A stretch of 64,000 nt of DNA from an uncultured Syntrophaceae bacterium. Its GTDB lineage: Bacteria > Desulfobacterota > Syntrophia > Syntrophales > UBA2192. Below the pieces are notes generated by a model. It did no database searches and was not told the DNA's origin. It saw only the letters and a program-made list of their open reading frames with translations. The position numbers and the translations under genes were made by a program. The stretch is from NCBI GenBank assembly GCA_964628025.1, contig CAZVLL010000005.1:68729-132728 (forward strand), in the 5' to 3' direction. This document shows positions 7,437 to 41,224 of the stretch, one piece after another. How positions within the stretch are numbered: the first letter of the stretch is position 1; every line of letters begins with the position of its first letter.

Positions 7437-8060
7437 ATGCCGAAGATCGATTGGAAGAAGCGGACCATCCAGGCTGCCCTGCTGCTTGCCGTTCTGATCG
7501 GCTGCGTCGGGATGCCTGCGTCGATGCAGCCCCTCCCCCCGGCCTCCGCCCTGTCCGAGGCCCGAGCAGCCGACAGGGACGACGAAGGGGCCCGCAAGGC
7601 CTTTCTCGCCGCCGTGGAGGTCCTCTATCACCCGCGCTGCATGAACTGCCATCCCTCGGGGGATGCGCCCCTGCAGAAAGACGACGGAAACATCCACGCA
7701 TTCAACGTAAAGCGCGGTCCCGAGGGCAAGGGAGCCGGAGCCATGAACTGCGCGCTATGCCACCGGGAGACGAACCAGTCCGGTGGTGCCCCCGGAGTGC
7801 CCAACTGGCACATGCCGCCGGAGAGCATGCCCATGGTCTTCCAGGGCCGCACGCCAGGGGAACTCTGTCGTCAGCTGAAGGACCCGAAGCTCAATGGCGG
7901 AAGGACCGGCGAACAGATCGTTGAACACATCTCCAAAGACCCTCTTGTCGGGTGGGCATGGAACCCCGGCGAGGGGCGGACGATCCCGAAAATGAGCCGG
8001 ACGGAATTTTCGGCGAAGATGAATGAGTGGGCGAAAAAAGGGGCCGCCTGCCCGGAATAA
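7437..8060 (+). CDS. putative dihaem c-type cytochrome lipoprotein
   Basis: 207 aa. Signal peptide with a lipobox-like LIGC, and two CXXCH motifs (CMNCH, CALCH). AAAGGAG RBS. Confidence 0.65.
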   Translation: MPKIDWKKRTIQAALLLAVLIGCVGMPASMQPLPPASALSEARAADRDDEGARKAFLAAVEVLYHPRCMNCHPSGDAPLQKDDGNIHAFNVKRGPEGKGAGAMNCALCHRETNQSGGAPGVPNWHMPPESMPMVFQGRTPGELCRQLKDPKLNGGRTGEQIVEHISKDPLVGWAWNPGEGRTIPKMSRTEFSAKMNEWAKKGAACPE

Positions 8061-20256: not shown

Positions 20257-20331
20257 TGGGGCGTCGGCAAGCGGTAAGCCACGGGACTTTGGCTCCCGCA
20301 TTCGGAGGTTCGAATCCTCCCGCCCCAGCCA
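20257..20331 (+). tRNA. tRNA-Gln (anticodon UUG), CCA encoded
   Basis: Hand-folded cloverleaf. Acceptor TGGGGCG/CGCCCCA. Anticodon stem CGGGA/TCCCG with loop CTTTGGC (UUG at 20289..20291). T-arm GGAGG-TTCGAATC-CCTCC. Closely resembles E. coli tRNA-Gln. The ispE-tRNA(Gln)-prs-rplY-pth context is conserved. Confidence 0.9.
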
Positions 20332-22799: not shown

Positions 22800-23012
22800 C
22801 AGCGTTTTTTCTTTTTTCATCCCTCCGTTTCCGCATCGTCGCAACCGCCCCGTTTCCCGGGCAGCGGTCGGATGCTTTTTGATTCCCGTCCTTCTCATCC
22901 CGGTCCAATAAAATCTTTGACAAAAGAGCCAATATTTGCTATGTCACGGCGGCTTTAATGGTTGGTCTCATTTCGGTACTTTTTGAAACTTTATTATGGA
23001 GGAGATGGAGAG

Positions 23013-25424
23013 ATGATTAGCGAGAGAGTCAAACGTGTCCTAAGCGCCGTATCCCTGGCGCTTATCGTTCTGCTCTTTGCGACGCCCCTGTTCGCAAGCG
23101 AGGCAGATTTGGTCATTCCCCCCCTGTCGGCCGCTCAAAACCAGCTGCTCATGATCGGCTTCGTGATCTGTTTTCTGGGAATGGGTTACGGCTACTTCAT
23201 GTATGCCAAGGTAAAGAAGATTCCGGCCCACAAGAGCATGCTGGACGTGGCGGAAATCATTTTCCAGACCTGCAGCACCTACCTGATCCAGCAGGGCAAA
23301 TTACTTTTCATCCTGTTCGTCTTTATCGGCTCCTGCATTTTCTACTATTTCGGCTTCCTGCAGCACATGGGAATGAAAGACGTCTTCCTGATCCTGGCCT
23401 GGACCGTCGTCGGCATCCTCGGGTCCTACGGCGTGGCCTGGTTCGGCATCCGCATGAACACCCTGGCCAATGCCCGCATGGCCTTTGCCTCCCTTGAAGG
23501 CAAGCCCATGAAGCTGCTCGACATCCCGCTGACGGCCGGCATGAGCATCGGCGTGCTGCTGGTCTGCGTCGAGCTCATTATGATGCTCATCATCCTGGTA
23601 TTCATGCCCCGCGAAGTGGCGGGTGCTGCCTTCATCGGCTTCGCGATCGGCGAGTCGCTGGGCGCCTCCGCCCTGCGTATCTGCGGCGGTATCTTCACCA
23701 AGATCGCCGACATCGGCTCCGACCTCATGAAGATCGTCTTCACCATCAAGGAAGACGATCCCCGCAACCCCGGCGTCATCGCCGACTGCACCGGTGACAA
23801 CGCCGGCGACAGCGTCGGCCCCACGGCGGACGGCTTCGAGACTTACGGCGTGACGGGCGTGGCCCTGATCAGCTTCATCGTGCTGGCCTGCCTGCCCCAG
23901 TACCAGGCCGAGCTTCTCGTCTGGATCTTCGTCATGAGAGTCCTCATGATCGTCACCTCCATCGGCTCCTACTTCGTCAACAAGATGATCACGGAGTCCC
24001 TCTGGGGCGGAAAGGAAAAGGTCAACTTCGAGGCCGCCCTGACGTCCCTGGTCTGGATCACCTCGATTGTTTCCATCGTCGTGACCTTCATCATCAGCAA
24101 ATGGCAGCTCGGCCACTACCCCAATGAGCTGTGGTTCAAGCTCTCCGTGATCATCAGCTGCGGAACCCTCGCGGCAGCCCTGATCCCCGAGCTGGTCAAG
24201 GTATTCACGAGTTCCCATTCAAGGCACGTGGCCGAGGTCGTCACGGCCTCCCGTGAAGGCGGCCCCTCGCTGAACATCCTTTCCGGTCTCGTGGCCGGCA
24301 ACTTCGCCGCCTTCTGGATCGGCATGGCCATCACGGCCTTGATGTTCGTTGCTTACTATACGAGCACCTTCGGACTTTCCAACTTCATGGAATACTCTTC
24401 CGTGTTTGCCTTCGGCCTCGTGGCCTTCGGTATGCTCGGCATGGGGCCCGTGACCATCGCCGTCGACAGCTACGGCCCCGTGACGGACAACGCGCAGTCG
24501 ATCTATGAGCTGTCGCTCATCGAGACCATCCCCAACGTGGAAAAGGAAATCGAGAAGGAATTCGGCTTCAAGCCCCGCTTCGACGTCGCCAAGCACTACC
24601 TCGAAGAGAACGACAGCTGCGGCAACACCTTCAAAGCGACCGCCAAGCCCGTGCTCATCGGCACGGCCGTCGTCGGCGCCACCACGATGATCTTCTCGCT
24701 CATCCTGCTTCTCAGGAAGGCCCTGGGAATTCAGCCCGAGATGCTCCTCAACCTGCTCAACCCTTACACGCTGCTGGGCCTGCTCTGCGGCGGCGCCGTC
24801 ATCTACTGGTTCACCGGTGCTTCCATGCAGGCCGTCGTGACCGGCTCCTACCGAGCCGTTCAGTACATCAAGGAGAATATCAAGCTCGACGATGCGGCCA
24901 GCCTAAGCGCCTCAACGGAGAACTCCAAGGAGGTCGTGAAGATCTGTACGGTGTATGCCCAGAAGGGCATGTTCAACATCTTCATCGCCATCTTCCTGTT
25001 CGCCCTGGCCTTCGCGTTCCTGTCCGCACCCGTGAAGGGGCCGGAATCGACGTCCTTCTTCATCAGCTACCTGATCTCAATTGCCGTCTTCGGTCTCTAC
25101 CAGGCCCTTTTCATGGCCAATGGTGGCGGTTGCTGGGACAATGCGAAGAAGGTCATCGAAGTCGACCTGAAAGAGAAGGGAACGCCCCTGCACGCTGCCG
25201 CCGTCATCGGCGACACCGTCGGCGACCCCTACAAGGACACCTCCTCGGTGGCCCTGAACCCGATCATCAAGTTCACCACCCTGTTCGGCATCCTAGCCAT
25301 GGAAATCGCCATCGCGCCGGATATGAGGGAATCCGCCATTGTCGTCGGGGCGATCTTCCTGGCCATCGCCCTGGTGTTCGTCTATCGCTCCTTCTACTCC
25401 ATGAGAATCCCCTTGGAGAAGTAA
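23013..25424 (+). CDS. hppA: membrane-bound proton/sodium-translocating pyrophosphatase, probably the K+-independent type
   Basis: The track starts at 22962. I use ATG 23013 after GGAGGAG. GDNAGD, AAVIGDTVGDPYKDT and about 16 TM helices are present. GNTFKATAK has Lys where K+-dependent enzymes have Ala (GNTTAA versus GNTTKA rule, from memory). Confidence 0.9.
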   Translation: MISERVKRVLSAVSLALIVLLFATPLFASEADLVIPPLSAAQNQLLMIGFVICFLGMGYGYFMYAKVKKIPAHKSMLDVAEIIFQTCSTYLIQQGKLLFILFVFIGSCIFYYFGFLQHMGMKDVFLILAWTVVGILGSYGVAWFGIRMNTLANARMAFASLEGKPMKLLDIPLTAGMSIGVLLVCVELIMMLIILVFMPREVAGAAFIGFAIGESLGASALRICGGIFTKIADIGSDLMKIVFTIKEDDPRNPGVIADCTGDNAGDSVGPTADGFETYGVTGVALISFIVLACLPQYQAELLVWIFVMRVLMIVTSIGSYFVNKMITESLWGGKEKVNFEAALTSLVWITSIVSIVVTFIISKWQLGHYPNELWFKLSVIISCGTLAAALIPELVKVFTSSHSRHVAEVVTASREGGPSLNILSGLVAGNFAAFWIGMAITALMFVAYYTSTFGLSNFMEYSSVFAFGLVAFGMLGMGPVTIAVDSYGPVTDNAQSIYELSLIETIPNVEKEIEKEFGFKPRFDVAKHYLEENDSCGNTFKATAKPVLIGTAVVGATTMIFSLILLLRKALGIQPEMLLNLLNPYTLLGLLCGGAVIYWFTGASMQAVVTGSYRAVQYIKENIKLDDAASLSASTENSKEVVKICTVYAQKGMFNIFIAIFLFALAFAFLSAPVKGPESTSFFISYLISIAVFGLYQALFMANGGGCWDNAKKVIEVDLKEKGTPLHAAAVIGDTVGDPYKDTSSVALNPIIKFTTLFGILAMEIAIAPDMRESAIVVGAIFLAIALVFVYRSFYSMRIPLEK

Positions 25425-25445
25425 GGAAACGACTTGCCTGACAAA

Positions 25446-25477
25446 GGGGCCGGCAGCGATGCCGGCCCCTTTTTTTG
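25446..25477 (+). terminator. intrinsic terminator after hppA
   Basis: GGGGCCGGC/GCCGGCCCC stem, 6-nt loop, T7. Confidence 0.75.
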
Positions 25478-25581
25478 TGTCTCGGGACGGAACAAACCCC
25501 TTGACAGGGTGGCGCAAACCCAATACCTTCAGGTTACCCCAATCCACGTAAACCCCCGAAACACGCTCCAGGACTTCTTTC

Positions 25582-26676
25582 ATGGGCTTCAACTGCGGTG
25601 TCATCGGCCTTCCCAACGTAGGAAAATCGACCATCTTCAATGCGCTGACCTGTGCCGGTGCCGAGGTGGCCAACTACCCCTTCTGCACCATCGATCCTAA
25701 CGCGGGGATCGTCTACGTGCCGGACCACCGGCTCGAGAAAATCGCATCTGTCGTCAAGCCCCCCAAGGTCACCTATACGACCATGGAATTCATCGACATC
25801 GCCGGGCTCGTAAGAGGGGCCAGCAAGGGCGAAGGGCTTGGCAATCAGTTTCTCGGTCATATCCGTCAGGTGGACGCCATCCTCCACATTGTCCGATGCT
25901 TTGACAATCCGGATATCGCACACATCTACGGCCCCATCGATCCGGTCCGGGATATCGAGATCATCAACATGGAGCTCATCCTGGCGGACCTCGAGACCCT
26001 GGCAAAGCGCATTGCCAAGACGGAAAAGATCATCAGAACGGGCGATAAAACGACCCGGAAGGCCCTGGAGGTCTACCAGCGGTTCGCGGATGCCCTGGGC
26101 CGGGGAATCCCGATGAGAAACATTCCCATACACGAAGACGACCGGGAGATCCTCGATGAGGCGCAACTGCTGACGTCCAAGAAGGTCCTCTATGTGGCCA
26201 ACGTCAGCGAAAAAGTTCTCAAGGAGGACGGTCCCTACATCTCGAAGGTCAGGGACATGGCCGCAAAAGAAGGCTCCGGCGTCGTGGTCATTTGCGGCGA
26301 TCTGGAGATGGAGATCGCCAAGCTCGACAAGGAGGAGCGAAGGGATTTCCTGGCAGACCTCGGGCTGGAGGAGTCGGGACTTCAGCAACTCATCCGCGAG
26401 GGTTACACCCTGCTCGATCTCATCACGTTCTATACGACCGTGGGCCCGGAGCTTCGGGCCTGGACGATTCGAAAGGGAACGAAAGCGCCCCGGGCAGCGG
26501 GGAAAATTCACACCGACATGGAAAAGGGTTTTATCCGGGCCGAAGTCCTTCACTATGAGGATTTCCTTCGCGTTGGGGGTATCGCGCAGGCCAGGGAAAA
26601 GGGTCTTCTGCATTTCCAGGGAAAAGAGTACGATATCCTTGACGGAGACATTGTCTATTTCCGGTTCAACGTTTGA
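25582..26676 (+). CDS. ychF: redox-regulated ATPase YchF
   Basis: 364 aa. GIIGLPNVGKSTIFNALT-type G1 motif and a TGS-like C-terminus. Confidence 0.95.
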   Translation: MGFNCGVIGLPNVGKSTIFNALTCAGAEVANYPFCTIDPNAGIVYVPDHRLEKIASVVKPPKVTYTTMEFIDIAGLVRGASKGEGLGNQFLGHIRQVDAILHIVRCFDNPDIAHIYGPIDPVRDIEIINMELILADLETLAKRIAKTEKIIRTGDKTTRKALEVYQRFADALGRGIPMRNIPIHEDDREILDEAQLLTSKKVLYVANVSEKVLKEDGPYISKVRDMAAKEGSGVVVICGDLEMEIAKLDKEERRDFLADLGLEESGLQQLIREGYTLLDLITFYTTVGPELRAWTIRKGTKAPRAAGKIHTDMEKGFIRAEVLHYEDFLRVGGIAQAREKGLLHFQGKEYDILDGDIVYFRFNV

Positions 26677-26855
26677 AACGTTTGAACGGGAGCTTGCCCT
26701 GCAACCCTCGCCGTGAAGGCGAGACACCTTAATACTTCCTTCTCGTAAACAGGAATATTTTTTATTGACAAGCCCCCTGTGATATAGTAAAAACCGACCC
26801 TGCTGAGAACAACTGCCCCGCAAGGGGAAAAAGTCAAAAGGAGGTGAAAGAACTA

Positions 26856-27077
26856 ATGAAGAAGGCATTCGCACTGGTACTCGCCCTTTTACTCGCCGTG
26901 TCATTTTCCTTTGTAGGCTGCGCCAAGCAAGAGGAGAAGAAGCCCGCGCCTGCACCTGCTCCGGCACCTGCTCCGGCACCTGCTCCGGCACCCGAGAAGG
27001 CTCCTGAGAAGGCAGCGGCTCCCGCACCGGCCCCGGCACCTGCTCCTGCTCCGGCTCCGGCCCCTGTGAAGAAGTAG
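26856..27077 (+). CDS. small lipoprotein with (Pro-Ala)n repeats
   Basis: The track starts at GTG 26844; ATG 26856 follows AAGGAGG. The signal peptide has lipobox FVGC, followed by two (PA)n blocks encoded by 12-bp tandem units. Confidence 0.6.
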   Translation: MKKAFALVLALLLAVSFSFVGCAKQEEKKPAPAPAPAPAPAPAPAPEKAPEKAAAPAPAPAPAPAPAPAPVKK

Positions 27078-27100
27078 TCACATACAGGAACAAGGCTATC

Positions 27101-27139
27101 AAAAAAACCGGGCATTCCTCGTGAATGCCCGGTTTTTTA
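27101..27139 (+). terminator. intrinsic terminator
   Basis: A7, ACCGGGCATTC/GAATGCCCGGT stem, T6. Confidence 0.75.
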
Positions 27140-27149
27140 TGCTAAGACT

Positions 27150-27272
27150 GATGAAAAAGGGCCATCTGCGGCGCTGCCCTCGTCCTTCGTCGTTCAATGT
27201 ACGTTCTAGTACACCTCACTCCTCAGGACGTCGGGCGCCTTGCATCTGACCCTTTTTGATCAGCCTGAAAGG
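27150..27272 (+). repeat. 123-nt MITE-like structured repeat, copy A
   Basis: Aligns with 28209..28331 at about 97 of 124 columns by my hand alignment. Central hairpin TGTAC-N6-GTACA (27198..27213). The termini are imperfect inverted repeats (AAAAAGGGNCANNTGC). Confidence 0.75.
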
Positions 27273-27305
27273 CAAATATCCCCTCTGCGAATCTGGAGAC
27301 GCTCG

Positions 27306-28202
27306 ATGTCGGTATTTAGATCAAAACAAATTCCTCACTTCGTGACAGCGGTCTGCATCGTTATGCTGTTCGCCGGATGTGCGCACAAAGAGATTCCCCC
27401 TCCTCAAATGAAGCAACCTGCCAAGGTTGCTGTTGTTCTGGGTGCGGGAGCCTCTCGGGGATTTACGCTCATCGGGGCGCTCAAAATTCTGGAAGCAAAC
27501 CATGTCCCGATCCACATGATCGTCGGGACGAGTGCCGGCAGCCTTGTAGGAAGTCTTTATGCTTACGGCTTCAACGCCTTCCAGCTTCAGAGTCTCGCTC
27601 TTTCCCTTGAGAAAGGAGACGTCATGGATCTGACCGTGCCGGACAACGGATTCATCAAGGGCGAGAAGCTGGAATCCTACGTCAACCACATGGTCAACAA
27701 CACGCCCATCCAAAAAATGCGAACCCCTTTTTACGTGGTGACGACGGACATTCAGACGGGGGAAGAAGTTGTCTTCGCCTCGGGCAACACGGGCATGGCG
27801 GTACGGGCCAGCTGCTCCATCCCGGGGATTTTCCGGCCCGTGAAAATTGGAGAGAAAACCTACGTAGACGGAGGGCTGGTCAGTCCTGTGGCTGTTGACT
27901 ATGCCCGAAAGGCGGGCGCTGACCTCGTCATCGCTGTGGACATTTCAACAGGAACCGGCGGCACTGCGCCCCAGACAACAATGGAGACCATCATGCAGTC
28001 CGTCATCATTATGTACTCCAAGGTCTCTCAGAGCCAGCTTGCCCGGGCCGACATCGTCATCAGGCCGAACGTCAGTCACATCGGTGCGACAGACTTCCAC
28101 AAGCGTCACGAAGCCATCATGGAAGGGGAAAAGGCGGCGCTGGAGGCGATGCCGGCCATTAGAGCGGCGATGGACAGGTTGAAGGCAGACGGAAGGCTCT
28201 GA
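27306..28202 (+). CDS. patatin-like phospholipase, lipoprotein
   Basis: The track starts at 27240 inside repeat A. I use ATG 27306 (MSVFRSKQIPHFVTAVCIVMLFAGC, lipobox), which has GGAG 8 nt upstream. GAGASRG oxyanion loop, GTSAG nucleophile elbow, and DGG Asp motif. Confidence 0.85.
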   Translation: MSVFRSKQIPHFVTAVCIVMLFAGCAHKEIPPPQMKQPAKVAVVLGAGASRGFTLIGALKILEANHVPIHMIVGTSAGSLVGSLYAYGFNAFQLQSLALSLEKGDVMDLTVPDNGFIKGEKLESYVNHMVNNTPIQKMRTPFYVVTTDIQTGEEVVFASGNTGMAVRASCSIPGIFRPVKIGEKTYVDGGLVSPVAVDYARKAGADLVIAVDISTGTGGTAPQTTMETIMQSVIIMYSKVSQSQLARADIVIRPNVSHIGATDFHKRHEAIMEGEKAALEAMPAIRAAMDRLKADGRL

Positions 28203-28208
28203 GAGGCT

Positions 28209-28331
28209 TGTGAAAAAAGACCATCTGCGGCGTTTCCTTCAACCCTCGTCGCTCAACGTACGCTCATAGTACGCCTCGTTCCTCGGGCTTTCAGGAGCCT
28301 TGCATCTGTCCCTTTTTGACCAGCCTACAGG
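28209..28331 (+). repeat. 123-nt MITE-like structured repeat, copy B (same orientation as A)
   Basis: See copy A. Central hairpin CGTAC-N7-GTACG (28257..28273). Its closing pair is C:G where copy A has T:A. Confidence 0.75.
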
Positions 28332-28410
28332 TTAAGACCATCTTCTATGATTATCTTTTTTTCGATCGGGGTGACAGCTTTGAAACGCAAGGGTAAGGAC
28401 GCGCTTTAGG

Positions 28411-28671
28411 CAAAAAAAATTGGTGGATGACGGACGGCTCATCCACCAATTTTATATTAAAAGAGAGGTTATTCCCCAACCCCCTCCCTTTTCTGTAGGG
28501 GGTCGGCGGATGGAAAGGAGGGAACCAAAAACCATCCGCCGATTCGCAAACCTAAAGCACGATCAGATGCTTGGCGACTATTTATGAGACCTTTAGAGAG
28601 GATCTACCTTTCCTATTCGATAAATTCATTATCTCTCTTTATGTTAAAGGTCAGTCTTCCAAAGGTCTCGT
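28411..28671 (-). ncRNA. candidate sigma54-dependent sRNA 1 (about 260 nt)
   Basis: Bounded by the sigma54 promoter (28697..28682, predicted start about 28671) and an intrinsic terminator (12-bp stem 28450..28419 plus U7-8). Contains the conserved hairpin 28542..28503. There is no credible ORF, and the next gene downstream is on the opposite strand. Confidence 0.45.
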
Positions 28672-28681
28672 ATTTGTATTT

Positions 28682-28697
28682 AGCAATAACAATGCCA
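28682..28697 (-). promoter_or_regulatory. sigma54 (-24/-12) promoter, TGGCATTGTTATTGCT
   Basis: The minus strand reads TGGCAT-N5-TTGCT, with GG and GC separated by 10 nt. It sits inside a 24-nt box (28680..28703) that matches 39462..39485 at 23/24 positions. Confidence 0.6.
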
Positions 28698-28760
28698 CAA
28701 AATAATAATAAATAATTACGAACTATTACAGTATTAGCCGGTGCTGACCCGTAAAGGGTT

Positions 28761-28777
28761 CGTGCGAAGTTAGCACA
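28761..28777. promoter_or_regulatory. candidate enhancer (UAS) site CGTGC-N7-GCACA
   Basis: CGTGCGAAGTTAGCACA, 64 bp upstream of the -24 element. Confidence 0.45.
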
Positions 28778-28846
28778 GATTGAAGGTCGATGTCGTGGCA
28801 AGTCCTTAAATGGTGCAGTCTATGGCTGTTCTCTATTCGCACATCA

Positions 28847-28863
28847 TGTGCTATAAAAGCACA
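28847..28863. promoter_or_regulatory. candidate enhancer (UAS) site TGTGC-N7-GCACA
   Basis: TGTGCTATAAAAGCACA, a perfect palindrome in its arms, about 150 bp upstream of the -24 element. An extra GCACA half-site lies at 28839..28843. Confidence 0.5.
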
Positions 28864-28869
28864 TGGCCT

Positions 28870-31020
28870 CTAAGTGACCGGATCTCCTCCCATTCCAACC
28901 TTCTTTAATTCTCGTATCAACGCGTACCTTGATATATTCAACAACTGGGCCGCTTTTGTCTTGTTGCCCCTGCTGAGCTCCAGAGCTCTTGCAAGGATGC
29001 GCTCCTTGATCTTCCCCGTAAGTTTCTCAATGGCAAGCTTGTAATCGATCCTCTCTGTTGCCGATGCGAGGGAGAGCAGTTCATCGACATGGACGACCGG
29101 ATCCTGTGCGGCCGACGATTTGATCTCTGCCGGAATGTTTTCCGGTGTGATGTAACGACCCACCCCGCGAAGGATCATGATCCGTTCAATGATGTTTTTG
29201 AGTTCGCGAACGTTTCCCGGCCAGGAGTATCGACGGAGAATCTCCTCGGCTTCCTTGGCAACACCCTTGACCTTCTTGTTAAATTTTCTGTTGAATTCTT
29301 CCACGTAGTGGCGCGCGAGCAGTACCAGGTCGTCGCCCCGCTCCCTCAGAGGCGGGAGAATAACCGGCACCACGCTGATACGGTAGAAAAGATCCTCACG
29401 GAAGGACCCTTCCGACACCAGCCTCGACAGATCCCGATTGGTGGCAAAGATGAAGCGCACATCGACAGGAATGGTCTCGTTGCCGCCGAGGCGACGGATA
29501 TATCCGTCCTCCAGCATCCGGAGAAACTTGGCCTGAAGGGGAAGACTCATGTCGCCGATCTCGTCAAGGAACAGTGTTCCCGCGCTTGCATATTCGAGAA
29601 GACCAATCTTCCGCTTCCTCGCATCGGTAAAGGCACCGGCCTCGTATCCAAAAAGTTCGCTCTCCAGAAGGGTGCCGGGAATGGCGGCGCAGTTCACATC
29701 GACAAAACGCTTCTGACTCCTGAGGCTCTGCCGGTGGATGGCCCTGGAGACCAGCTCCTTGCCCGTTCCGCTCTCGCCCTGGATGAGGATATTCGTATCG
29801 TGCTTGGCCACTTCCTCGATGACATGGAAAATGCCCATCATCTTTTTGGACTTGCCCAGGATGTTGTGAAAGCCGAGCAGAATGTCTTCCCGCTCCTTAA
29901 GCTTCTCCACCTCCGTCTTCAGCGACTTGGCCTCGATGGAAAGCATCGACTGCATGATGGCGCTGTCGTAGGACGTGGCGGCGTTGTTGACAAGGATGTC
30001 AAGGACATTGATCTGGTCCTGGGAATAGTTCCCCGCCCTCATTCCCAGCAGGAGAACTCCTTTAAATCGATCCTTCACCTTCAGGGGAATCGCAACCTCG
30101 GAGGGATAACCCTCATAGAGGGGCACGGCGCTGCCTGTCTCCGAATCCGGTTCCTGGACGGTGATGGTATCGTGGTCGAGGGCACTGCGGATGATCGTTT
30201 TGTCGATACGGGTGCTGTACTCATTCTTTTCGTCGATGAACCCCCGCTCCCCGTCATTGATGAAAACCCGATTCTTCTCGATGTCGAGAAAGTAGATGAG
30301 AGCCTTTTCGGCCTTCCCGATCCGCAGAGCACTGCGGATCAGGATCTCGTGGATTCGCTCGATCGAGTAGGTGGAATTCAGGTCCGAGACGGCTTCCTGC
30401 AGGATGAGCAATTGATCGATCTTTTCACGATTGATCTCGAAGAGGCGCGTGATGTGTGTGATGATGCTCACCTGGTTGGCAAAGGTAAGCAGGATATCGA
30501 TTTCGTCGAGGGAGAACCGCGTTTTCTCCTTGGTCCAGACGGCGATGATGCCGATGACATCGTCCTCGATCCTCAGGGGTGCATAAAAGGTGGATCCGCG
30601 CTTGTAGAAGGCGGATATTTTCCGGTCTGTCTCCGTTGTCCGGGGGTCCTTCTCGGAGTCCTCGAGGGCAATGTACTTTCCCGTCTTGGCCACCCGCGTT
30701 TCGAAGCTGTCATGTTTCTTGAGGTTCAGGTGCACCGAAAAAGCTCTCCGGGCCTCCTCGTCACTGTAGTTCTTCACGACCCGCGTGATCAGGTTTTCCC
30801 GGCTTTCGTCGAGCAACAGGATAATCCCCCGGTCAAACCCCATGGAACCGACAACTTCATCAAGGATCTTGCCGAGGATGTCTTCGACACTGGAGGGGGC
30901 CGTGAGAAATGTGCTGATCTGGAATATCCCCTTGATCAGCTTGTCTTTGTCGATGCTGTAGGCCGACGATGTCCTGATGGGGGGGGGGATCGTTCCGCCC
31001 TGCTCGATGATTCGCGCCAT
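28870..31020 (-). CDS. sigma54-dependent transcriptional activator (GAF-GAF-AAA+-Fis HTH)
   Basis: The track ORF is 28870..31116. I trimmed it to ATG 31020 (MARIIEQGG...) after AAAGGTGGA. Walker A GESGTGKE; sigma54-contact loop ESELFGYEAGAFTDA (GAFTGA variant); C-terminal HTH GNKTKAAQLLNISRYALIRELKK; two GAF-like N-terminal domains. Confidence 0.9.
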   Translation of the reverse strand: MARIIEQGGTIPPPIRTSSAYSIDKDKLIKGIFQISTFLTAPSSVEDILGKILDEVVGSMGFDRGIILLLDESRENLITRVVKNYSDEEARRAFSVHLNLKKHDSFETRVAKTGKYIALEDSEKDPRTTETDRKISAFYKRGSTFYAPLRIEDDVIGIIAVWTKEKTRFSLDEIDILLTFANQVSIITHITRLFEINREKIDQLLILQEAVSDLNSTYSIERIHEILIRSALRIGKAEKALIYFLDIEKNRVFINDGERGFIDEKNEYSTRIDKTIIRSALDHDTITVQEPDSETGSAVPLYEGYPSEVAIPLKVKDRFKGVLLLGMRAGNYSQDQINVLDILVNNAATSYDSAIMQSMLSIEAKSLKTEVEKLKEREDILLGFHNILGKSKKMMGIFHVIEEVAKHDTNILIQGESGTGKELVSRAIHRQSLRSQKRFVDVNCAAIPGTLLESELFGYEAGAFTDARKRKIGLLEYASAGTLFLDEIGDMSLPLQAKFLRMLEDGYIRRLGGNETIPVDVRFIFATNRDLSRLVSEGSFREDLFYRISVVPVILPPLRERGDDLVLLARHYVEEFNRKFNKKVKGVAKEAEEILRRYSWPGNVRELKNIIERIMILRGVGRYITPENIPAEIKSSAAQDPVVHVDELLSLASATERIDYKLAIEKLTGKIKERILARALELSRGNKTKAAQLLNISRYALIRELKKVGMGGDPVT

Positions 31021-31060
31021 GAATCCACCTTTTTGTGCGTGACGGTTTTCAGTAACGCGA

Positions 31061-31089
31061 TTTATAGCAGTATGCTTGTTATTTTTCAA
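31061..31089 (-). promoter_or_regulatory. candidate sigma70-type promoter of the activator gene (TTGAAA-N17-TATAAA)
   Basis: Minus strand: -35 at 31089..31084 and -10 at 31066..31061. Confidence 0.4.
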
Positions 31090-31096
31090 CATGTTC

Positions 31097-31113
31097 CGTG
31101 CGAATCGTGCACA
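31097..31113. promoter_or_regulatory. candidate autoregulatory site CGTGC-N7-GCACA
   Basis: CGTGCGAATCGTGCACA, 8 bp upstream of the -35 of the activator promoter. Confidence 0.4.
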
Positions 31114-31242
31114 CACAGAAAAAGTTCAGGGTATAGTGAAGGGTAGAGATACAAGCGTGTAGCGTGGAACAGGCAGCGTCAAAAAGGGATTCGAAATGCC
31201 GCATGCAGGACGCGATACGGCCTTGTGCGGCTTTCGGCTGTT

Positions 31243-33273
31243 TCAGGCTTTGTCGTAGCGGAGGAATTGCATGGTGAAGATCGCCCGACCCTGGGTGGCA
31301 GAGCGCAGGTCTGTGGAATATCCGAAAAGCTTCCGGAGAGGCACATTCGCTTTGATCTCGGTGACGGGTCCCTTCGGCGTTACGGACTCGACTTCCCCCT
31401 TTCGGGCGTTGATGTCGCCGATCACCTCTCCCATGAAGTCCCGCGGTGTGAGAATATCAACCCGCATGATCGGCTCCAGGAGGACCGGACCAGCCTTGGA
31501 GCAGCCGTCCCTGAAAGCCGTGGCCGCGGAAATTTTGTACCCGACGGGAGAGGACTCTCCTTCCCTGAAGGATCCCCCCGTAATGCGGACCTTCACGTCC
31601 TGCACGGGGTAACCCGCCATGACACCGCTGAGAACCGCCTCTCCGAGGGACTCTTCGATGACAGAATGGAATTCCTCCGGGATGGTCTCGGGCATAAGCT
31701 CGTTTTTCATCTCGATACCGGTGCCTCTCGGGAGAGGCTCCAGAACGAGTTTCACGTGGCCGAAGTGCTTCTTCTCTCCGAGCTCGCGCTCGAAGCGCCC
31801 TTCCGTCTCGACGGCCTTCTGTATCGTCTCCCGGTAAACGACGCGGGGCTTGCCAACGTTCACATGAACGTTGTACTCCCGCAGCAGCCTGTCCACGACG
31901 ACTTCGAGATGGAGCTCCCCCATCCCCGAAATAAGGGTCTGAGCCGTTTCCTCGTCGTACTTCACTTTCAGCGTGGGGTCTTCGTCGGTGATCTTTTCGA
32001 GCACACCGGGCAGCTTTTCCTGGTCTCCGGGGGTCTTCGCCTCGATGGCCTGACTGATGACGGGATTATAGAATTCGATGGATTCCAGGATGATGGGTTT
32101 CGATTCGACGCAGAGGGTATCCCCGGTGGTGCTGTCTTTGAGCCCTGCGATGGCAATGATGTCTCCCGCTCCGGCCACGTCGATGCGCTCACGCTTGTTG
32201 GCGTGCATCTTCAGAAGCCGTGCAACCTTTTCCTTCCGGCCCTTTGTAGCGTTGTAGACCTCGTCACCGGCCTTGAGCAGACCGGAATAGATGCGGGCAT
32301 AGGTGATCTTGCGGCCTTCCATCATGGATACCTTGAAGGCAAGCGCCGTAAAGGGCTCTCTGTCGCTTGCCTCGCGTCTCTCTTCGGCCTTGGTCACGGG
32401 GTTGATCCCCTTCACGGGCGGGACCTCCTCCGGCGACGGAAGGAAATCGACGACGGCATCCAGGATAGGCTGGATTCCCTTGTTCCGCAAAGCCGCCCCA
32501 CACAGGACCGGGACAAGCTTGAGGGATACCGTTGCCTTTCGGATGGCCCGGATCAACTCGATATCGGAAATGGGAATCTCGCCCAGATACTTATCCGCAA
32601 TTTCGTCGTCGACCTCTGCAAGCGTCTCCAGCAGCTTTTCGTGCCCGGACTCCGCCTCGGCACGGAAGTCATCCGGGATGTCGGACACATCATACGCCGC
32701 TCCCAGAGTGCTCTCCTGCCAGGTAAGCAAGCGCATGCGGATCAGATCAACGATACCCCGAAAATGTTCCGCCTCTCCGAGAGGCATCTGAACAGGCAAC
32801 GGAGCGGACAGGAAGCGCTCCTTCATCATCGCGATGGCTCCAAAATAGTCGGCTCCGATACGGTCCATCTTGTTGATGAAGGCGATTTTGGGAACCCCGT
32901 ATTTGTCGGCCTGGTGCCAGACTGTCTCGGACTGGGGCTCGACCCCTTCCACGGCCGAGAACACGACGACGGCCCCATCGAGGACCCGGAGGCTCCGTTC
33001 CACTTCGATGGTGAAGTCCACGTGCCCCGGTGTATCGATGATGTGGACTTCGTGGTTTCTCCAGTCACAGGTGGTTACGGCGGAGGTGATGGTGATGCCT
33101 CGTTCCTGCTCCTGGGGCATCCAGTCCATGACGGCTTCACCGTCGTGCACTTCACCCATTTTATAAGACTTGCCCGTGTAGAAGAGAATCCGCTCCGTCA
33201 CGGTCGTTTTTCCCGCATCGATGTGGGCAACGACCCCGATGTTGCGGATTCTGGAAAGCTTCACTCTTGCCAT
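31243..33273 (-). CDS. elongation factor G paralog (stand-alone, outside the str operon)
   Basis: About 676 aa. G1 [17 protein letters not shown] and NKMD motifs, then EF-G domains II-V. ATG 33273 is preferred over TTG 33279. Confidence 0.9.
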
Positions 33274-33360
33274 GGGCAAACCCAGTCCTGTCCGGCCGGA
33301 GGCATGATCAAGGCGACTGCAGAACGGATCATCTCTGCCGACCCGTTTCGGAGTTCCGCC

Positions 33361-37483: not shown

Positions 37484-38896
37484 TTACTTCATGGGCGCTA
37501 TATACGGAATGGTCAGTGCAAAGTACCAGCACAGGAAAAAGACAAGCGGGATGTGAATGAGCATCTGCAAAACAGAATAGCCGACGAGATCCCTTGCCTT
37601 CATGTGCAGAATCCCCAGGAGCGGAAGCATCCAGAAGGGGTTGAGCAGGTTCGGAAGCGCCTCTGCGGCGTTGTAGATCTGGACGACCCATCCGAGGTTC
37701 ACCCCGTGCTGCACGGCCGCCGTGAGGACGTAGGGAGCCTCGATGACCCACTTGCTTCCGCCGGAAGGGATGAAGACCCCGAGGACGGCAGAGTAAAGGG
37801 CCACCAGCAGCGAGTAGGTCTCTTTCGTCGTGATGGCAACAAAGAGATCCGCCAGCCACTTGTTGATCCCCGTGCCAACGATCATGCCGAAGATCACGGC
37901 GTAGAAGGGAAATTGGATGAGCACGCCACCCGTGGCCGGCACGGATTGCGCCACGGCCTTGAGGAACCGCTTGGGCCGCCAGTGCAGCAGCATGCCCACG
38001 GTGATGAAGATCAGGTTGTAGTTGTTGAGATCCAGCGCCGCGATGGGCCCCCGGGGTTCCTTCTGGAAGAAATCGAAGAGATACCAGGCAAGAATACCGC
38101 CCACAAGAACGATTAGGGCAGGGCTGTACTCGAGCCACTCGCCGGGCTTCTGCCGGGGCTCAAGGCTCGTGTCGATGGGATCAAATTTCAAGCCGTAGTC
38201 CTCGACCGTTTTTGCCCGCTCGGGCTTGGGAGCTGAGAAGTAAGCGATGACGACGGAAACAACGATCAGGGCAACGGCGGTCCAGAATGTCGGCCAGATA
38301 AAGAGGGTCTGAGTCAGGGGGATGAGTCCGCTGATTTCATAGAGCTTGGGCGGAATCGATCCCTTGGTGGCCATCATGAGGGCGGCTGAGGATGAAAGGC
38401 CCAGCGCCCAGACGGCGCCCAGCCCCAGGTAGGCGGCCGCACCGGCTGCGCGGAAATCCATGCCCTTGATAGTGCGCGACATCTCGCGGACGAGAAGTCC
38501 GCTGAAGATGAGGCTCAAGCCCCACGAGATGAGCGAAGTAATCATGGAGAAAAAAGCAATCCATGCGATCGCCGCCCTGGGATTCGTGGTGATGCCGGCC
38601 ACCTTCCTGATGACCCAGTAAACGGCCGGGGTGGTTGCCACGACATAGCCACCGATGATGATCAATGCCATTTGCATCGTGAAGGGAATGAGAATCCAGA
38701 AGGACTTTCCTCCCTCCCAGACCAGCTTCTGGGGGCTTTCCCCGATGAGAAGACCGAATACAAAGACAAAGACGATGCCGATCAAAGCAAATACCCAGGC
38801 ATCGGGAAACCACTTTTCGCTCCAAGCGGCCAGCCAGAGGCCGAAACGCTCTAGGGCATTTTCCCCCTGCTCAGCTTTTTTGATGTTCTCTGCCAT
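37484..38896 (-). CDS. atoE: short-chain fatty acid transporter (AtoE family)
   Basis: 470 aa, polytopic. The N-terminus ...LERFGLWLAAWSEKWFPDAWVFALI... and overall pattern match my recollection of the AtoE/TIGR00366 family. AAAGGAGGGG RBS. Confidence 0.8.
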   Translation of the reverse strand: MAENIKKAEQGENALERFGLWLAAWSEKWFPDAWVFALIGIVFVFVFGLLIGESPQKLVWEGGKSFWILIPFTMQMALIIIGGYVVATTPAVYWVIRKVAGITTNPRAAIAWIAFFSMITSLISWGLSLIFSGLLVREMSRTIKGMDFRAAGAAAYLGLGAVWALGLSSSAALMMATKGSIPPKLYEISGLIPLTQTLFIWPTFWTAVALIVVSVVIAYFSAPKPERAKTVEDYGLKFDPIDTSLEPRQKPGEWLEYSPALIVLVGGILAWYLFDFFQKEPRGPIAALDLNNYNLIFITVGMLLHWRPKRFLKAVAQSVPATGGVLIQFPFYAVIFGMIVGTGINKWLADLFVAITTKETYSLLVALYSAVLGVFIPSGGSKWVIEAPYVLTAAVQHGVNLGWVVQIYNAAEALPNLLNPFWMLPLLGILHMKARDLVGYSVLQMLIHIPLVFFLCWYFALTIPYIAPMK

Positions 38897-39155
38897 GCTT
38901 TTCTACCCCTCCTTTCGTTAGAATCGTTCATGCATCCCGACACGGAAGCGCAGCTGCATACGATCGCCTTGCAAATCGAATCGACACGGGCACAGCGCCG
39001 CCCCCACCTGATTAATTGTGTTGATCAACTCTCCGGGCACCTTATCGTTCCGCAGGGTATGAGGACAAAGAGAAATAATTCTTCGCCCGACAAGAAATCT
39101 GATAATTATAAACGGACTTGATACGGCCCCTATCCGCGATCACCCCCTTCCCCGG

Positions 39156-39199
39156 AAAAAAACAAAAAAAACCCCGTTCACAGGACCGTAAACGGGGTT
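39156..39199 (-). terminator. intrinsic terminator ending the sigma54 transcript, about 270 bp upstream of the atoE start
   Basis: AACCCCGTT/AACGGGGTT 9-bp stem, followed on the minus strand by U6-G-U7. Confidence 0.7.
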
Positions 39200-39453
39200 A
39201 TGTATCTTGTCCATCTCATGGTTGCAACACCACGGCAGGTGACTTCTGTTTTTATTTTCTTCTCATTCCAGCATGCCTATAACAGATTGATGATGTTTAT
39301 TCAATAGGATTGACAATTTTCCCTTTTGAAAGGGCATCGGTGGATGGAAAGGAGGGACCAAAACCATCCACCGATTAACCGCTTTCGAAAGGGGCGCCGG
39401 GAAACTTGGGGGTCTGCCAGGGTCTTTCTAATTTCCGTGAGCGCCACTAGTGC
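39163..39453 (-). ncRNA. candidate sigma54-dependent sRNA 2, or a terminator-containing leader of atoE (about 290 nt)
   Basis: Sigma54 promoter at 39479..39464 with predicted start about 39453, conserved hairpin at 39375..39336, terminator at 39199..39156. No credible ORF. Confidence 0.45.
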
Positions 39454-39463
39454 TCTCAAAGTT

Positions 39464-39479
39464 AGCAATAACGATGCCA
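39464..39479 (-). promoter_or_regulatory. sigma54 (-24/-12) promoter, TGGCATCGTTATTGCT
   Basis: The minus strand reads TGGCAT-N5-TTGCT. Paralogous to 28682..28697. Confidence 0.6.
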
Positions 39480-39615: not shown

Positions 39616-39632
39616 TGTGCGATAAAAGCACA
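39616..39632. promoter_or_regulatory. candidate enhancer (UAS) site TGTGC-N7-GCACA
   Basis: TGTGCGATAAAAGCACA, about 137 bp upstream of the -24 element. It differs from 28847..28863 at one spacer base. Extra half-sites are GCAC at 39544..39547 and TGTGC at 39564..39568. Confidence 0.5.
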
Positions 39633-39793
39633 AATAGCGTTCAAATACCGCGAGCATACAGTGGACGGGGGCTTCACGGCTGTGCGAATATCGAACCTTT
39701 AGTGCTCCGCACGCACATTCAGGCCGTCCTTTCCCTCTTGACTCCGATCCTCAACAGAAATTCTCGCTTTTCGCGAGATAACATGTTTTCACC

Positions 39794-39822: not shown

Positions 39823-40033
39823 TTGCGCGATTTGTTGGATTGCTCAAATGACCTCCGTGGCGCGCTTGAGAGTCCCTTCCCCACCGTTCTTTCGTCTTTC
39901 GCCACGCCTGAGACAGACAGAGAGAGGATCACCCCGGGCGAGTTGCATCATGAGGCTCACGCTATGCGCTAGCACAGGAAACATCCGTAATTCGCGCTTT
40001 GGGGCCAAATTTTAGAAAGGGAGGTAGTTGGTT

Positions 40034-41224
40034 ATGGCGTTGAATTTCAATTTCACAGATGAACAGAAGATGCTCGAGGACAGCGTTTATAAGTGGGCGC
40101 TTGCCTGGCTCGAGCCCCAGATGGAGCATGCTTACGAACTGGACGTGATGCCTGAGGGTCTTTTCAAGCAGACAGGCGACCTGGGCATCAACGGTATCGT
40201 GTTCGAGGAGAAGTACGGCGGAACCGCCATGGGCTACATAGAAACCCTGCTGGCCTATGAGACGATCGCCCGCGTGAGCAATGCCCTGTCCATGACCGTC
40301 GGCGCAAGCCAGACGTTGTGCTTCGACAACTTCCGCCGCAATGCGACGGAAGCGCAGAAACTGGAGATCCTCCCCAAGTCCTGCACCGGCGAGTTCATTG
40401 GCTGCCTCGGCATCACCGAGCCCAACGCCGGCTCCGATGCCATGAGCATGGCGACCAAGGCCGTCAAGAAGGGCGACAAGTGGATCATCAACGGCAGCAA
40501 GATCTTCATCACCAACGGTCCGCTCGCCGACTTCATGGTGTTCTACGCCAAGACGGACCCCGAGAAGGGCCCCCACGGCATCTCCACCTTCATGTGCTAC
40601 CCCAAGAAACAGAAGGGCTGGTCCTGCGAGAAGATCAAGAAGTGGGGCATGAGAACCTCTCCCACGGGTCTCGTGACCTTTGAAGACATGGAGGTTCCCG
40701 AAGAGTACCTCATCGGCGGCCTGAACAAGGGCGTCGCCGTTCTGACCTCCGGCCTCTGCACCGAGCGCATCACGTTGTCCGGCTGCACCCTCGGATCAAT
40801 GAGAAGCTGCCTCGAGCTCTCCCTGAAGTACTCCCAGGAGAGAGTCCAGTTCGGCAAGCCGATTGCCTCCTTCCAGTCGATCCAGGAAAAGCTCGCCAAC
40901 ATGTACTGCGGCTACAAGGCCTCCCGCTGGATGGCTTACAGCGCCGCCGCCTACTGCGACACGCTGTCGAACAAGTCCGGCGGCAAGGGTACGGACCTCG
41001 ACCGTATGGCCGCGGCCTCCCTGCTGTATTGCGGCGAGATGGGAACCAAGATCGGTCTGGATGCGGTCCAGATCCACGGCGGTTACGGCTACTGCACCGA
41101 GTACGGTGTGACCCGGCACTTCCTGGATCAGAAGCTGTGGGAAATCGGCGCCGGCACCTCCGAAATCCGCCGCATGATCATCGCCCGCGAGCTGATGAGA
41201 GACAACTTCAAGAGCGGCCTGTAA
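40034..41224 (+). CDS. acyl-CoA dehydrogenase
   Basis: The track starts at TTG 40028; ATG 40034 follows AAAGGGAGG. ACAD pattern: GCLGITEPNAGSD, WIINGSKIFITNG, and the C-terminal QIHGGYGY...WEIGAGTSEI. Confidence 0.9.
   Translation: MALNFNFTDEQKMLEDSVYKWALAWLEPQMEHAYELDVMPEGLFKQTGDLGINGIVFEEKYGGTAMGYIETLLAYETIARVSNALSMTVGASQTLCFDNFRRNATEAQKLEILPKSCTGEFIGCLGITEPNAGSDAMSMATKAVKKGDKWIINGSKIFITNGPLADFMVFYAKTDPEKGPHGISTFMCYPKKQKGWSCEKIKKWGMRTSPTGLVTFEDMEVPEEYLIGGLNKGVAVLTSGLCTERITLSGCTLGSMRSCLELSLKYSQERVQFGKPIASFQSIQEKLANMYCGYKASRWMAYSAAAYCDTLSNKSGGKGTDLDRMAAASLLYCGEMGTKIGLDAVQIHGGYGYCTEYGVTRHFLDQKLWEIGAGTSEIRRMIIARELMRDNFKSGL

Follow-up and report, generated by a model that had tools for sequence, protein, structure and literature searches.

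A palindromic three-site enhancer predicted to link a GAF-GAF sigma54 activator to paralogous anti-Shine-Dalgarno RNAs in the order Syntrophales

The 17-bp motif YGTGC-N7-GCACA recurs in a 64,000-nucleotide stretch of DNA from an uncultured Syntrophaceae bacterium (assembly GCA_964628025.1, contig CAZVLL010000005.1, positions 68,729 to 132,728; the whole stretch is referred to here as the window), where its copies accompany two sigma54 promoters and the promoter of a sigma54 activator gene. This raises the question of which protein recognises the motif and which transcripts it controls. The palindrome is likely to be the binding site, or upstream activating sequence (UAS), of the activator encoded next to it (28870-31020), a protein with two GAF domains which is predicted to read the motif through its HTH_8 helix-turn-helix (HTH) domain and to drive two RNAs, RNA-1 and RNA-2. 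Judged from related genomes, this activator very probably switches on a family of small RNAs with an anti-Shine-Dalgarno (anti-SD) loop across the order Syntrophales.

The whole window was searched on both strands for YGTGC-N7-GCACA, with 100 dinucleotide-preserving shuffles as a control. The four copies reported in the initial annotation are all present where it had placed them (28761-28777, 28847-28863, 31097-31113 and 39616-39632), which compares with 0.17 copies expected, and none of the 100 shuffles reached four; the earlier estimate of about 0.1 chance copies per 64 kb was close to the shuffle value. The information-bearing core of the motif is the palindrome GTGC-N7-GCAC, of which there are six exact copies in the 64 kb, five of them within three regulatory regions, including a fifth copy at 39702-39716 which had been overlooked. 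The copy at 7797 lies inside an open reading frame (ORF) and is taken as a chance match. At each sigma54 promoter a one-mismatch copy (28828-28842 and 39682-39696) has its centre exactly 20 bp away from that of the distal site, and the exact and one-mismatch copies together therefore amount to three sites per sigma54 promoter. The full element as seen in a symmetrised logo is a 17-bp palindrome, yGTGCg-nWWWn-cGCACr, which occurs seven times in the window, three times at each of the two sigma54 promoters (TGGCATYGTTATTGCT) and once at the activator promoter.

Both sigma54 promoters predicted by the initial annotation exist and lie on the minus strand (TGGCATTGTTATTGCT, 28697->28682, and TGGCATCGTTATTGCT, 39479->39464). 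They fit the sigma54 consensus with GG at -24, GC at -12 and the exact spacing between them (TGGCAC-N5-TTGCW), and the site-to-(-24) distances of 150, 64 and 137 bp that had been given for three of the motif copies are all right. Measured between centres, the three sites are spaced 20 + 66 bp at the RNA-1 promoter and 20 + 65 bp at the RNA-2 promoter, and the centre of the proximal site lies 73 bp (RNA-1) or 146 bp (RNA-2) from the -24 GG, within the range of about 70-250 bp upstream that is usual for activator sites at sigma54 promoters. The elements of the two regulatory regions are as follows.

28848..28862, unstranded: UAS site 1 of the RNA-1 promoter, distal; GTGCTATAAAAGCAC, an exact palindrome, 8 bp past the activator stop codon, its position conserved in orthologous loci
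28828..28842, unstranded: UAS site 2 of the RNA-1 promoter; GTTCTCTATTCGCAC, with one mismatch, 20 bp between its centre and that of site 1
28762..28776, unstranded: UAS site 3 of the RNA-1 promoter, the proximal one; GTGCGAAGTTAGCAC, with centre distances of 66 bp to site 2 and 73 bp to the -24 GG
28682..28697, minus strand: sigma54 promoter of RNA-1; TGGCATTGTTATTGCT, with -24 GG and -12 GC
39702..39716, unstranded: UAS site 1 of the RNA-2 promoter, distal; GTGCTCCGCACGCAC, a conserved island in orthologous loci
39682..39696, unstranded: UAS site 2 of the RNA-2 promoter; GTGCGAATATCGAAC, with one mismatch, 20 bp between its centre and that of site 1, a conserved island
39617..39631, unstranded: UAS site 3 of the RNA-2 promoter, the proximal one; GTGCGATAAAAGCAC, at distances of 65 bp to site 2 and 146 bp to the -24 GG
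39464..39479, minus strand: sigma54 promoter of RNA-2; TGGCATCGTTATTGCT, invariant in four orthologous loci but for one C/T position

The search of the window for sigma54 promoters used a pattern with an N7 spacer and returned three matches against 1.17 expected. The third match, TGGCGATCCGGTTGCT at 58839-58854 on the minus strand, has no motif nearby, lies in a region of long ORFs and is probably due to chance.

The association of motif, promoter and RNA is conserved well beyond the window. A scan with the activator protein, restricted to one genome per species, yielded 78 loci with about 60 full-length orthologues (57-90% identity), nearly all of them labelled as Syntrophales, Syntrophaceae, Syntrophus or unclassified Deltaproteobacteria. 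Essentially all orthologous loci have the same fixed order in which the activator stop codon is followed by one to three exact copies of GTGC-N7-GCAC, a TGGCAY-N5-TTGCW promoter and a hairpin, and motif, promoter and RNA hairpin are found together in about 58 Syntrophales loci. Across about 50 orthologous loci the density of exact motifs is 4.6 per kb in the 400 bp past the activator stop codon compared with 0.006 per kb over the other 481 kb, an enrichment of about 750-fold. As an independent test, metagenome contigs were scanned with the hairpin sequence alone and the upstream region of each of the 120 resulting loci was inspected. Motif and sigma54 promoter are also present at hairpin copies located away from an activator gene, and the RNA-2 orthologues that lie beside an acyl-CoA dehydrogenase gene, such as those in loci L092, L109, L148 and L149, retain both elements. 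The hairpins of L089 and L099, which have a TATAAT-type promoter instead, that of L096, which comes right after a gene, and that of L132, which has no recognisable site or promoter nearby, seemingly belong to other lineages or arose by chance.

In the pooled set of 1.47 Mb of Syntrophales genome and metagenome DNA there are 316 exact motifs, of which 298 are followed within 1.3 kb by an anti-SD loop on the correct strand; the others comprise 15 copies of the site upstream of the activator gene, one copy before a sigma54-driven protein-coding gene (L031) and two that are unexplained. The geometry of the sites is equally constrained. Exactly three sites with at most one mismatch, spaced 20 and then 62-70 bp, are found in 107 of 120 distinct promoter regions, the first spacing being 20 bp in 109 cases, and regions which appear to be free of the motif mostly hold three one-mismatch copies at the same spacing. 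The promoter consensus TGGCAY-N5-TTGCW is kept in the 120 regions. In 1.41 Mb of Syntrophales loci the exact palindrome is scarce outside the regulatory regions, where two or three copies are seen and about nine would be expected from the GTGC and GCAC tetramer frequencies; this deficit could reflect the avoidance of spurious sites.

The DNA-binding domain of the activator follows the distribution of the motif. The HTH recognition helix ISRY.LIRE.KK is kept in all motif-bearing lineages, and the more distant GAFTDA activators of L064-L078 (Aminicenantes, WOR-3 and others), whose loci are without the motif, have the recognition helix GIH.TSLFRKLKS, which is the pattern expected if the HTH reads the motif. 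The proposal of one activator with two RNA outputs is supported by this correspondence and by the co-occurrence of motif, promoter and hairpin both in orthologous loci and in copies away from the activator gene. Several of the distant GAFTDA activators (L066, L068, L069 and L071-L076, from Aminicenantes, WOR-3 and 'Eubacteriales' metagenome-assembled genomes) have a sigma54 promoter 100-300 bp past their stop codon and no GTGC-N7-GCAC.

The activator itself is a protein of 716 amino acids with the following architecture.

28870..31020, minus strand: sigma54 activator, 716 aa; GAF-GAF sensor, AAA+ domain with GAFTDA loop, HTH_8 (Pfam, translation)

The two GAF domains and the GAFTDA variant of the sigma54-contact loop that had been read from the sequence are confirmed by Pfam, by the translation and by a model of the tandem GAF region. 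The AAA+ region matches PF00158 (E=1e-67) and AAA_lid_14 (E=1.5e-25), and the Fis-type HTH_8 occupies residues 675-707. With an AAA+ domain and lid, a GAFTGA-type loop and a C-terminal HTH the protein carries the marks of a sigma54 activator, for which loop activity and DNA binding are predicted. GAFTDA is invariant in 75 homologues, and a study of Desulfovibrio vulgaris activators lists it among the loop variants that keep activity (PMC4641369). The protein stays under the cut-offs of all named NCBIfam equivalogs, among them AtoC, NtrC, NorR, PrpR, FhlA, LuxO and GlrR; an identity as NifA was rejected, since the NifA model (TIGR01817) is the best-scoring one yet gives 375.8 bits against a cut-off of 528.85. 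Database homologues have generic names only, and the closest solved structures found by PDB sequence search are ZraR, NtrC1 and NifA, a similarity that is generic to sigma54 activators. The AlphaFold model of residues 1-383 (pLDDT 82.6) consists of two GAF domains linked by long helices and resembles the GAF-A/B modules of PDE2/5/6 and CyaB2 at the fold level only (TM score about 0.4, 12-18% identity), an identity so low that no ligand class can be deduced from it.

Both sigma54 promoters point away from their sites into DNA which has no long ORF and is closed by a strong intrinsic terminator. The predicted transcripts and their principal elements are given below.

28408..28671, minus strand: RNA-1, about 264 nt, predicted non-coding; 5' end placed from promoter geometry, 3' end from the terminator U-run
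28503..28542, minus strand: anti-SD hairpin of RNA-1; UCGGCGGAUGG-UUUUUGGUUCCCUCCUUU-CCAUCCGCCGA
28416..28453, minus strand: intrinsic terminator of RNA-1; 15-bp stem and U8
39162..39453, minus strand: RNA-2, about 292 nt, predicted non-coding paralogue of RNA-1; both ends predicted
39337..39374, minus strand: anti-SD hairpin of RNA-2; UCGGUGGAUGG-UUUUGGUCCCUCCUUU-CCAUCCACCGA, with a compensatory C-G to U-A pair relative to RNA-1
39170..39199, minus strand: intrinsic terminator of RNA-2; 13-bp stem and U8

The fold z-scores against shuffled controls are -5.6 for RNA-1 and -4.5 for RNA-2. The two RNAs can be aligned mainly in the block AAUCGG(C/U)GGAUGG-UUUU(U)GG(U)UCCCUCCUUU-CCAUCC(G/A)CCGA, which forms the hairpin and contains one compensatory pair. 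The body of RNA-2, from promoter through hairpin as aligned, is conserved in L092, L109, L148 and L149, and the sole short ATG-initiated ORF of RNA-1 (15 codons) is without its start codon in locus L005. No family in Rfam 15 matches RNA-1 or RNA-2 either at the gathering score or in permissive scans (best E 0.23-0.45, far below gathering); a match to the 'atoC RNA' (E=0.41) covers the terminator region only and was dismissed. With their own promoter, a terminator and a conserved candidate seed, the two transcripts would fit the marks of trans-acting small RNAs.

The hairpin defines a family whose structure is supported by covariation. In an alignment of 42 distinct hairpin sequences the 11-pair stem is 98.5% paired and six of its 11 pairs show compensatory changes, such as GGAUGG/CCAUCC versus GAGUGG/CCGCUC and CG, UA or AU at the base of the stem, while slid controls fall to 28-57%. 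The loop CCCUCCUYU is invariant in all 42, both window RNAs having the CCCUCCUUU loop. The sequence CCUCCUUU is the anti-Shine-Dalgarno core of bacterial 16S rRNA, and as the loop has the same sequence the RNAs most likely pair with ribosome-binding sites of the AAAGGAGGG type.

Members of the family vary in what surrounds the hairpin. In many lineages the hairpin with its U-run is itself the terminator, and several loci have two tandem hairpins. The sigma54 transcripts in L026, L027, L035, L038, L056, L059 and L065 first encode a conserved acidic peptide of about 70 amino acids (8430-8640 in L026), and a second clade (L083, L143) likewise has an acidic peptide of about 70 residues ahead of the hairpin. 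The peptide reads M(D/K)DTTK...LSEEFFLSDLSGD (...LSEEFFLSDL...), or ends in ...ELSRFFLDNE..., matches no NCBIfam family and is followed by one or two anti-SD hairpins, which suggests that these transcripts are dual-function RNAs; RNA-1 and RNA-2 of the window have no such ORF. A UspA-like gene lies between promoter and hairpins in L045 and L046, and in L031 (8363-8750) the motif and sigma54 promoter precede an ATP-grasp / succinyl-CoA-synthetase-beta-like gene, so that the regulon does not consist of RNAs only in every lineage.

Further features of the transcripts were noted. The terminator stem of RNA-1 (28416-28453, minus strand; UUGGUGGAUG...CAUCCACCAA) repeats the stem sequence of the anti-SD hairpin around another loop, which suggests that it arose by hairpin duplication. 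A conserved segment GAG(UU/AC)CUUU(AAA/GGA) is located just past the predicted transcription start (28660-28671; also in L026, L027, L038, L046 and L056), and a second conserved element, CYUUYAGKUUU, directly precedes the hairpin.

A mechanism can be proposed in which a small molecule would act on the tandem GAF sensor and three activator dimers would bind the three sites and assemble into an active AAA+ hexamer, the fixed three-site grammar being one that fits three dimers nucleating a single hexamer. The hexamer would contact sigma54-RNA polymerase through the GAFTDA loop by looping of the intervening DNA, and this contact would open both TGGCATYGTTATTGCT promoters. The products would be two paralogous, terminator-ended RNAs that display the CCCUCCUUU loop on a 10-11-bp hairpin, and the loop may then pair with AAAGGAGG(G) ribosome-binding sites and lower the translation of the targets. 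In the window's own clade a single site near -51 of the sigma70-type promoter of the activator gene would in addition give autoregulation, most likely negative.

This last step depends on the region directly upstream of the activator gene, which contains two elements.

31061..31089, minus strand: sigma70-like activator promoter; TTGAAA-N17-(TGc)TATAAA, -35 at 31084-31089 and -10 at 31061-31066, conserved in relatives
31098..31112, unstranded: single site at the activator promoter; GTGCGAATCGTGCAC, centre about -51 from the predicted start

The TTGAAA-N17-TATAAA promoter had been correctly recognised by the initial annotation, with the correction that the gap between site and -35 is 7 bp and not 8, and it also has an extended -10 (TGcTATAAA). 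An alignment of seven relatives with 88-90% identity shows a single block of conservation in a spacer that has otherwise diverged, made up of the site, a GGAA spacer, TTGAAA, 17 bp and (TGn)TATAAA; these relatives carry about 85 nt extra in the leader, and the block is still in register with the promoter. The more distant orthologues have no site upstream of the activator gene. The suggestion of autoregulation accordingly holds for the closest clade, where the footprint is conserved, and not for the distant orthologues; in the window's own clade it is likely on this comparative evidence, and by analogy with other sigma54 activators its sign is more likely to be negative, that is, repression.

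Several observations weigh against the proposal that the activator reads the palindrome and drives non-coding regulators. The evidence for binding, expression and transcription is comparative. A generic sigma70 scan does not call the activator promoter, because its -10 ends in A. The sigma54 gene rpoN is not seen in the 64-kb window, which is as far as it was looked for, and inspection by eye found no clear IHF match between the sites and the promoters. The distance from proximal site to promoter varies among the 120 regions, falling into classes of about 73, 146-157 and 161-176 bp, and therefore no single looping geometry applies. The anti-SD reading is suggested by the identity of the loop and by one duplex prediction within the window, a type of prediction in which strong ribosome-binding sites all score well. 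Given the small ORF or UspA-like gene in other clades, the description as a pure non-coding regulator is not universal for the family.

Other explanations of the motif differ in how much of this evidence they can accommodate. That the copies are chance matches or passive repeats without function might be argued from the circumstance that four short matches were picked out by eye and that short palindromes can recur, but with 0.17 copies expected, an enrichment of about 750-fold at a conserved position, conserved islands in diverged spacers and a three-site geometry fixed in 107 of 120 regions this is already refuted by the comparative data, and its probability is close to nil. It is also very unlikely that the motif is a real regulatory site bound by another factor, a sigma54 activator or repressor encoded elsewhere, while the adjacent activator controls something else. 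Such a factor would be compatible with a visible genome portion of 64 kb, with support for binding by the adjacent activator that is comparative in kind, and with the dozens of sigma54 activators encoded by many Deltaproteobacteria, 37 of them in D. vulgaris (PMC4641369). The motif, however, lies directly 3' of this particular activator in essentially every orthologous locus over a range of 57-90% protein identity, is absent from the loci of related activators with a different HTH, and is found on this activator's own promoter in the closest clade.

A reading in which the transcripts act in cis, as leaders, attenuators or messengers, is unlikely, although it has more to draw on. RNA-2 would then form the 5' leader of the gene for the short-chain fatty acid transporter, which lies 270 bp downstream on the same strand, and the hairpin of RNA-2 would act as a terminator or attenuator or would sequester the AAAGGAGGGG ribosome-binding site of the transporter. 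The two are indeed co-oriented, the ribosome-binding site of the transporter is a perfect complement of the loop, the hairpin doubles as a terminator in many lineages, and other clades have the conserved small ORF or UspA-like gene between promoter and hairpins. Against this, the genes past RNA-1 are convergent with it and rule it out as a leader, a strong terminator (13 bp, U8) closes RNA-2, L092, L109 and L149 keep the RNA, the promoter and the sites though the transporter is replaced by an oppositely oriented gene, and the paralogues occur in a variety of unrelated settings, where they mostly converge with the gene that follows.

The initial annotation had further suggested that the activator directly controls the divergent acyl-CoA dehydrogenase and transporter genes in a fatty-acid-responsive circuit, which is now quite improbable. 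The distal site at 39702-39716 does lie about 78 bp upstream of a TTGACA-N17-TATAGG element facing the dehydrogenase gene, the adjacency of dehydrogenase and RNA-2 is kept at 93-97% protein identity, and a dehydrogenase homologue occurs near the EF-G/activator cluster in other lineages. The dehydrogenase gene is a conserved divergent neighbour of RNA-2 with its own conserved sigma70-like promoter (TTGACA-N17-TATAxx), but no sigma54 promoter faces it in the window, and sigma54 activators act on sigma54 promoters. The three sites of RNA-2 moreover have the same geometry and orientation as those of RNA-1, which has no divergent gene. The neighbours of paralogous RNA loci are unrelated, for example cytochrome bd-like and MFS transporter genes, and the transporter adjoins RNA-2 only in near-identical relatives (96%), another gene taking its place elsewhere. 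Direct control of the two genes thus finds no promoter on which to act at the dehydrogenase, and because of the dehydrogenase's own promoter, the non-conservation of the transporter and the unrelated contexts of the paralogues the fatty-acid circuit is not supported. Nor do the 64 kb of the window suffice to support the label of a self-contained regulon given in the initial annotation.

The transporter is of interest in a different capacity, as a candidate target of the RNA loop.

38897..38925, minus strand: candidate target of the RNA loop (weak evidence), the ribosome-binding site in front of the short-chain fatty acid transporter gene; GAAAGGAGGGG

Among 52 crudely called genes of the window, the transporter gene (37484-38896, just downstream of RNA-2) has the start region with the best predicted duplex with the loop (-24.6 versus a median of -14 kcal/mol), which is also the only one with an exact AAAGGAGGG. 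As any strong Shine-Dalgarno sequence scores well, this duplex is a lead and not a result. A third occurrence of AAAGGAGGG, at 57720, is inside a coding region and unrelated. On the other side of RNA-2 the acyl-CoA dehydrogenase gene has a leader of about 200 nt (39823-40035, plus strand) which, in an alignment of relatives (columns 1-145), is far better conserved than the rest of the spacer and could be structured or a regulatory target; the ribosome-binding site of the dehydrogenase gene, AGAAAGGGAGG, is partly complementary to the RNA loop.

The arrangement of an activator gene with its own sigma54-dependent small RNA is a known circuit layout, of which the locus described here is a new, previously uncharacterised example that stands outside each of the named systems; its sensor type and DNA motif are different and its RNAs match no RNA family. 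The literature surveyed for Syntrophus together with sigma54 or small RNA contains no account of this system. The features that it adds are the rigid three-site enhancer grammar, the invariant order-wide anti-SD hairpin and the conserved placement between the EF-G and ychF genes. In Enterobacteria the response regulator GlrR (QseF) controls two homologous sigma54-dependent small RNAs, GlmY and GlmZ, from three palindromic sites each, with one of the RNA genes located by the activator operon. GlrR recognises TGTC-N10-GACA sites, the two RNAs exert their effect via RapZ and the glmS mRNA, and in E. coli their sigma54 promoters overlap sigma70 promoters. The three sites per promoter and the paired RNAs are shared with the Syntrophales system, whereas the anti-SD loop is found only in the latter. 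In Vibrio the sigma54 activator LuxO drives several paralogous small RNAs with a shared seed, Qrr1-5, of which one adjoins the activator gene, and it also regulates its own expression. LuxO is a phosphorylated response regulator with TTGCA-N3-TGCAA sites, and the Qrr RNAs are about 100 nt long, dependent on Hfq and act through a linear seed. Published abstracts bear out the dependence of Qrr1-5 on LuxO and sigma54. The linear Qrr seed contrasts with the hairpin-loop anti-SD sequence of the RNAs described here, the lineages are unrelated, and neither window RNA was matched by an Rfam family. Like the activator described here, NifA is a one-component regulator of sigma54 promoters that contains GAF and has a palindromic site of the TGT...ACA type. 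NifA, however, has one GAF domain, TGT-N10-ACA sites and nif genes as targets, whereas the activator described here has two GAF domains and predicted sites of the TGT-N11-ACA form with a GTGC/GCAC core, and its putative targets are RNAs. The earlier assignment of the motif to the TGT-N11-ACA class is right as to the spacing and its comparison with NifA is a loose one, as NifA sites have N10 and the protein scores under the NifA cut-off; the window sites, TGTGC-N7-GCACA, are not of the TGT-N10-ACA type.

Two other systems also offer parallels in gene arrangement. In Myxococcus xanthus and its relatives the gene for the small RNA Pxr lies directly downstream of the gene for the sigma54 activator Nla19 (PxrR), is transcribed from a sigma54 promoter of its own within a spacer of some 260 bp and encodes several stem-loops, and in some genomes each of its paralogues has a sigma54 promoter and enhancer sites (PMC5568312). 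The position of the RNA gene downstream of the activator, its own sigma54 promoter and the paralogues with their own promoters and sites are alike in both systems. Nla19 is a two-component response regulator while the activator described here is a one-component GAF-GAF protein, and the Pxr paralogues are in tandem while those of the Syntrophales RNAs are dispersed and share the anti-SD loop as their conserved element. As no Rfam family matched the window RNAs, Pxr, if it is among the Rfam families, is unmatched as well. In D. vulgaris non-coding RNAs are located downstream of the sigma54 activators DVU0653, DVU0679 and DVU2359, for which the non-coding RNA beside the activator's own gene is the only predicted target, and DVU2359 is a one-component protein (PMC4641369). 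This system belongs to a related deltaproteobacterial lineage and has GAFTDA among its functional loop variants. The D. vulgaris activators and motifs differ from those of the window, the comparison of the RNAs being one of published descriptions and not of sequences, and the passages of the study that were consulted report neither a three-site rule nor an anti-SD hairpin for them.

Syntrophus, Smithella and other Syntrophales are key degraders of fatty acids and aromatic compounds in methanogenic systems and are hard to grow, and to our knowledge almost nothing is known about gene regulation in this order. The comparison provides an order-wide wiring diagram that comprises a sensor protein, a DNA site with a three-site grammar, promoters and RNA outputs with a candidate seed. 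For the question of how DNA-bound dimers nucleate a hexamer, the three-site rule (20 bp, then 62-70 bp) offers unusually clean data from nature, the motif can serve as a search key for the rest of the regulon in any Syntrophales genome, and the anti-SD loop suggests a simple translational mechanism.

The genes around the activator have a conserved order in Syntrophales, in which EF-G, activator and small RNA lie on one strand and face the patatin gene, where present, YchF and an H+-pyrophosphatase (22962-33279 in the window; for example L142, L164 and L188). The patatin gene is an insertion in some lineages, and the EF-G copy near the activator scores above the EF-G equivalog cut-off. A more far-reaching, and improbable, idea is that the hairpin mimics the anti-SD tail of 16S rRNA and acts as a general competitor for strong Shine-Dalgarno sequences, giving a signal-controlled and order-wide throttling of translation in slow-growing syntrophs. 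If this were true, the placement between EF-G and the ribosome-associated ATPase YchF and the fusion to the acidic ORF would together form one translation-control module, and the several hairpin copies per genome would be made on command of a metabolite-sensing GAF-GAF activator and not serve as a regulator of a few mRNAs.

Some minor features of the window complete the description. The initial annotation had described the activator gene and its downstream gap as AT-rich, and the computed windowed GC content bears this out for the intergenic gaps (0.43-0.47) and only marginally for the activator gene (0.53-0.57 compared with 0.58-0.60 in the flanks). A tRNA gene at 20257-20328 on the plus strand is the only Rfam match at the gathering score. 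A 522-amino-acid ORF at 25534-27102 on the minus strand, which is the longest in that region and has no Pfam hit, was rejected as an antisense shadow of ychF (25582-26676, plus strand; TIGR00092, 461 bits), and this shadow ORF even gave tblastn matches of 25-59% identity in relatives.

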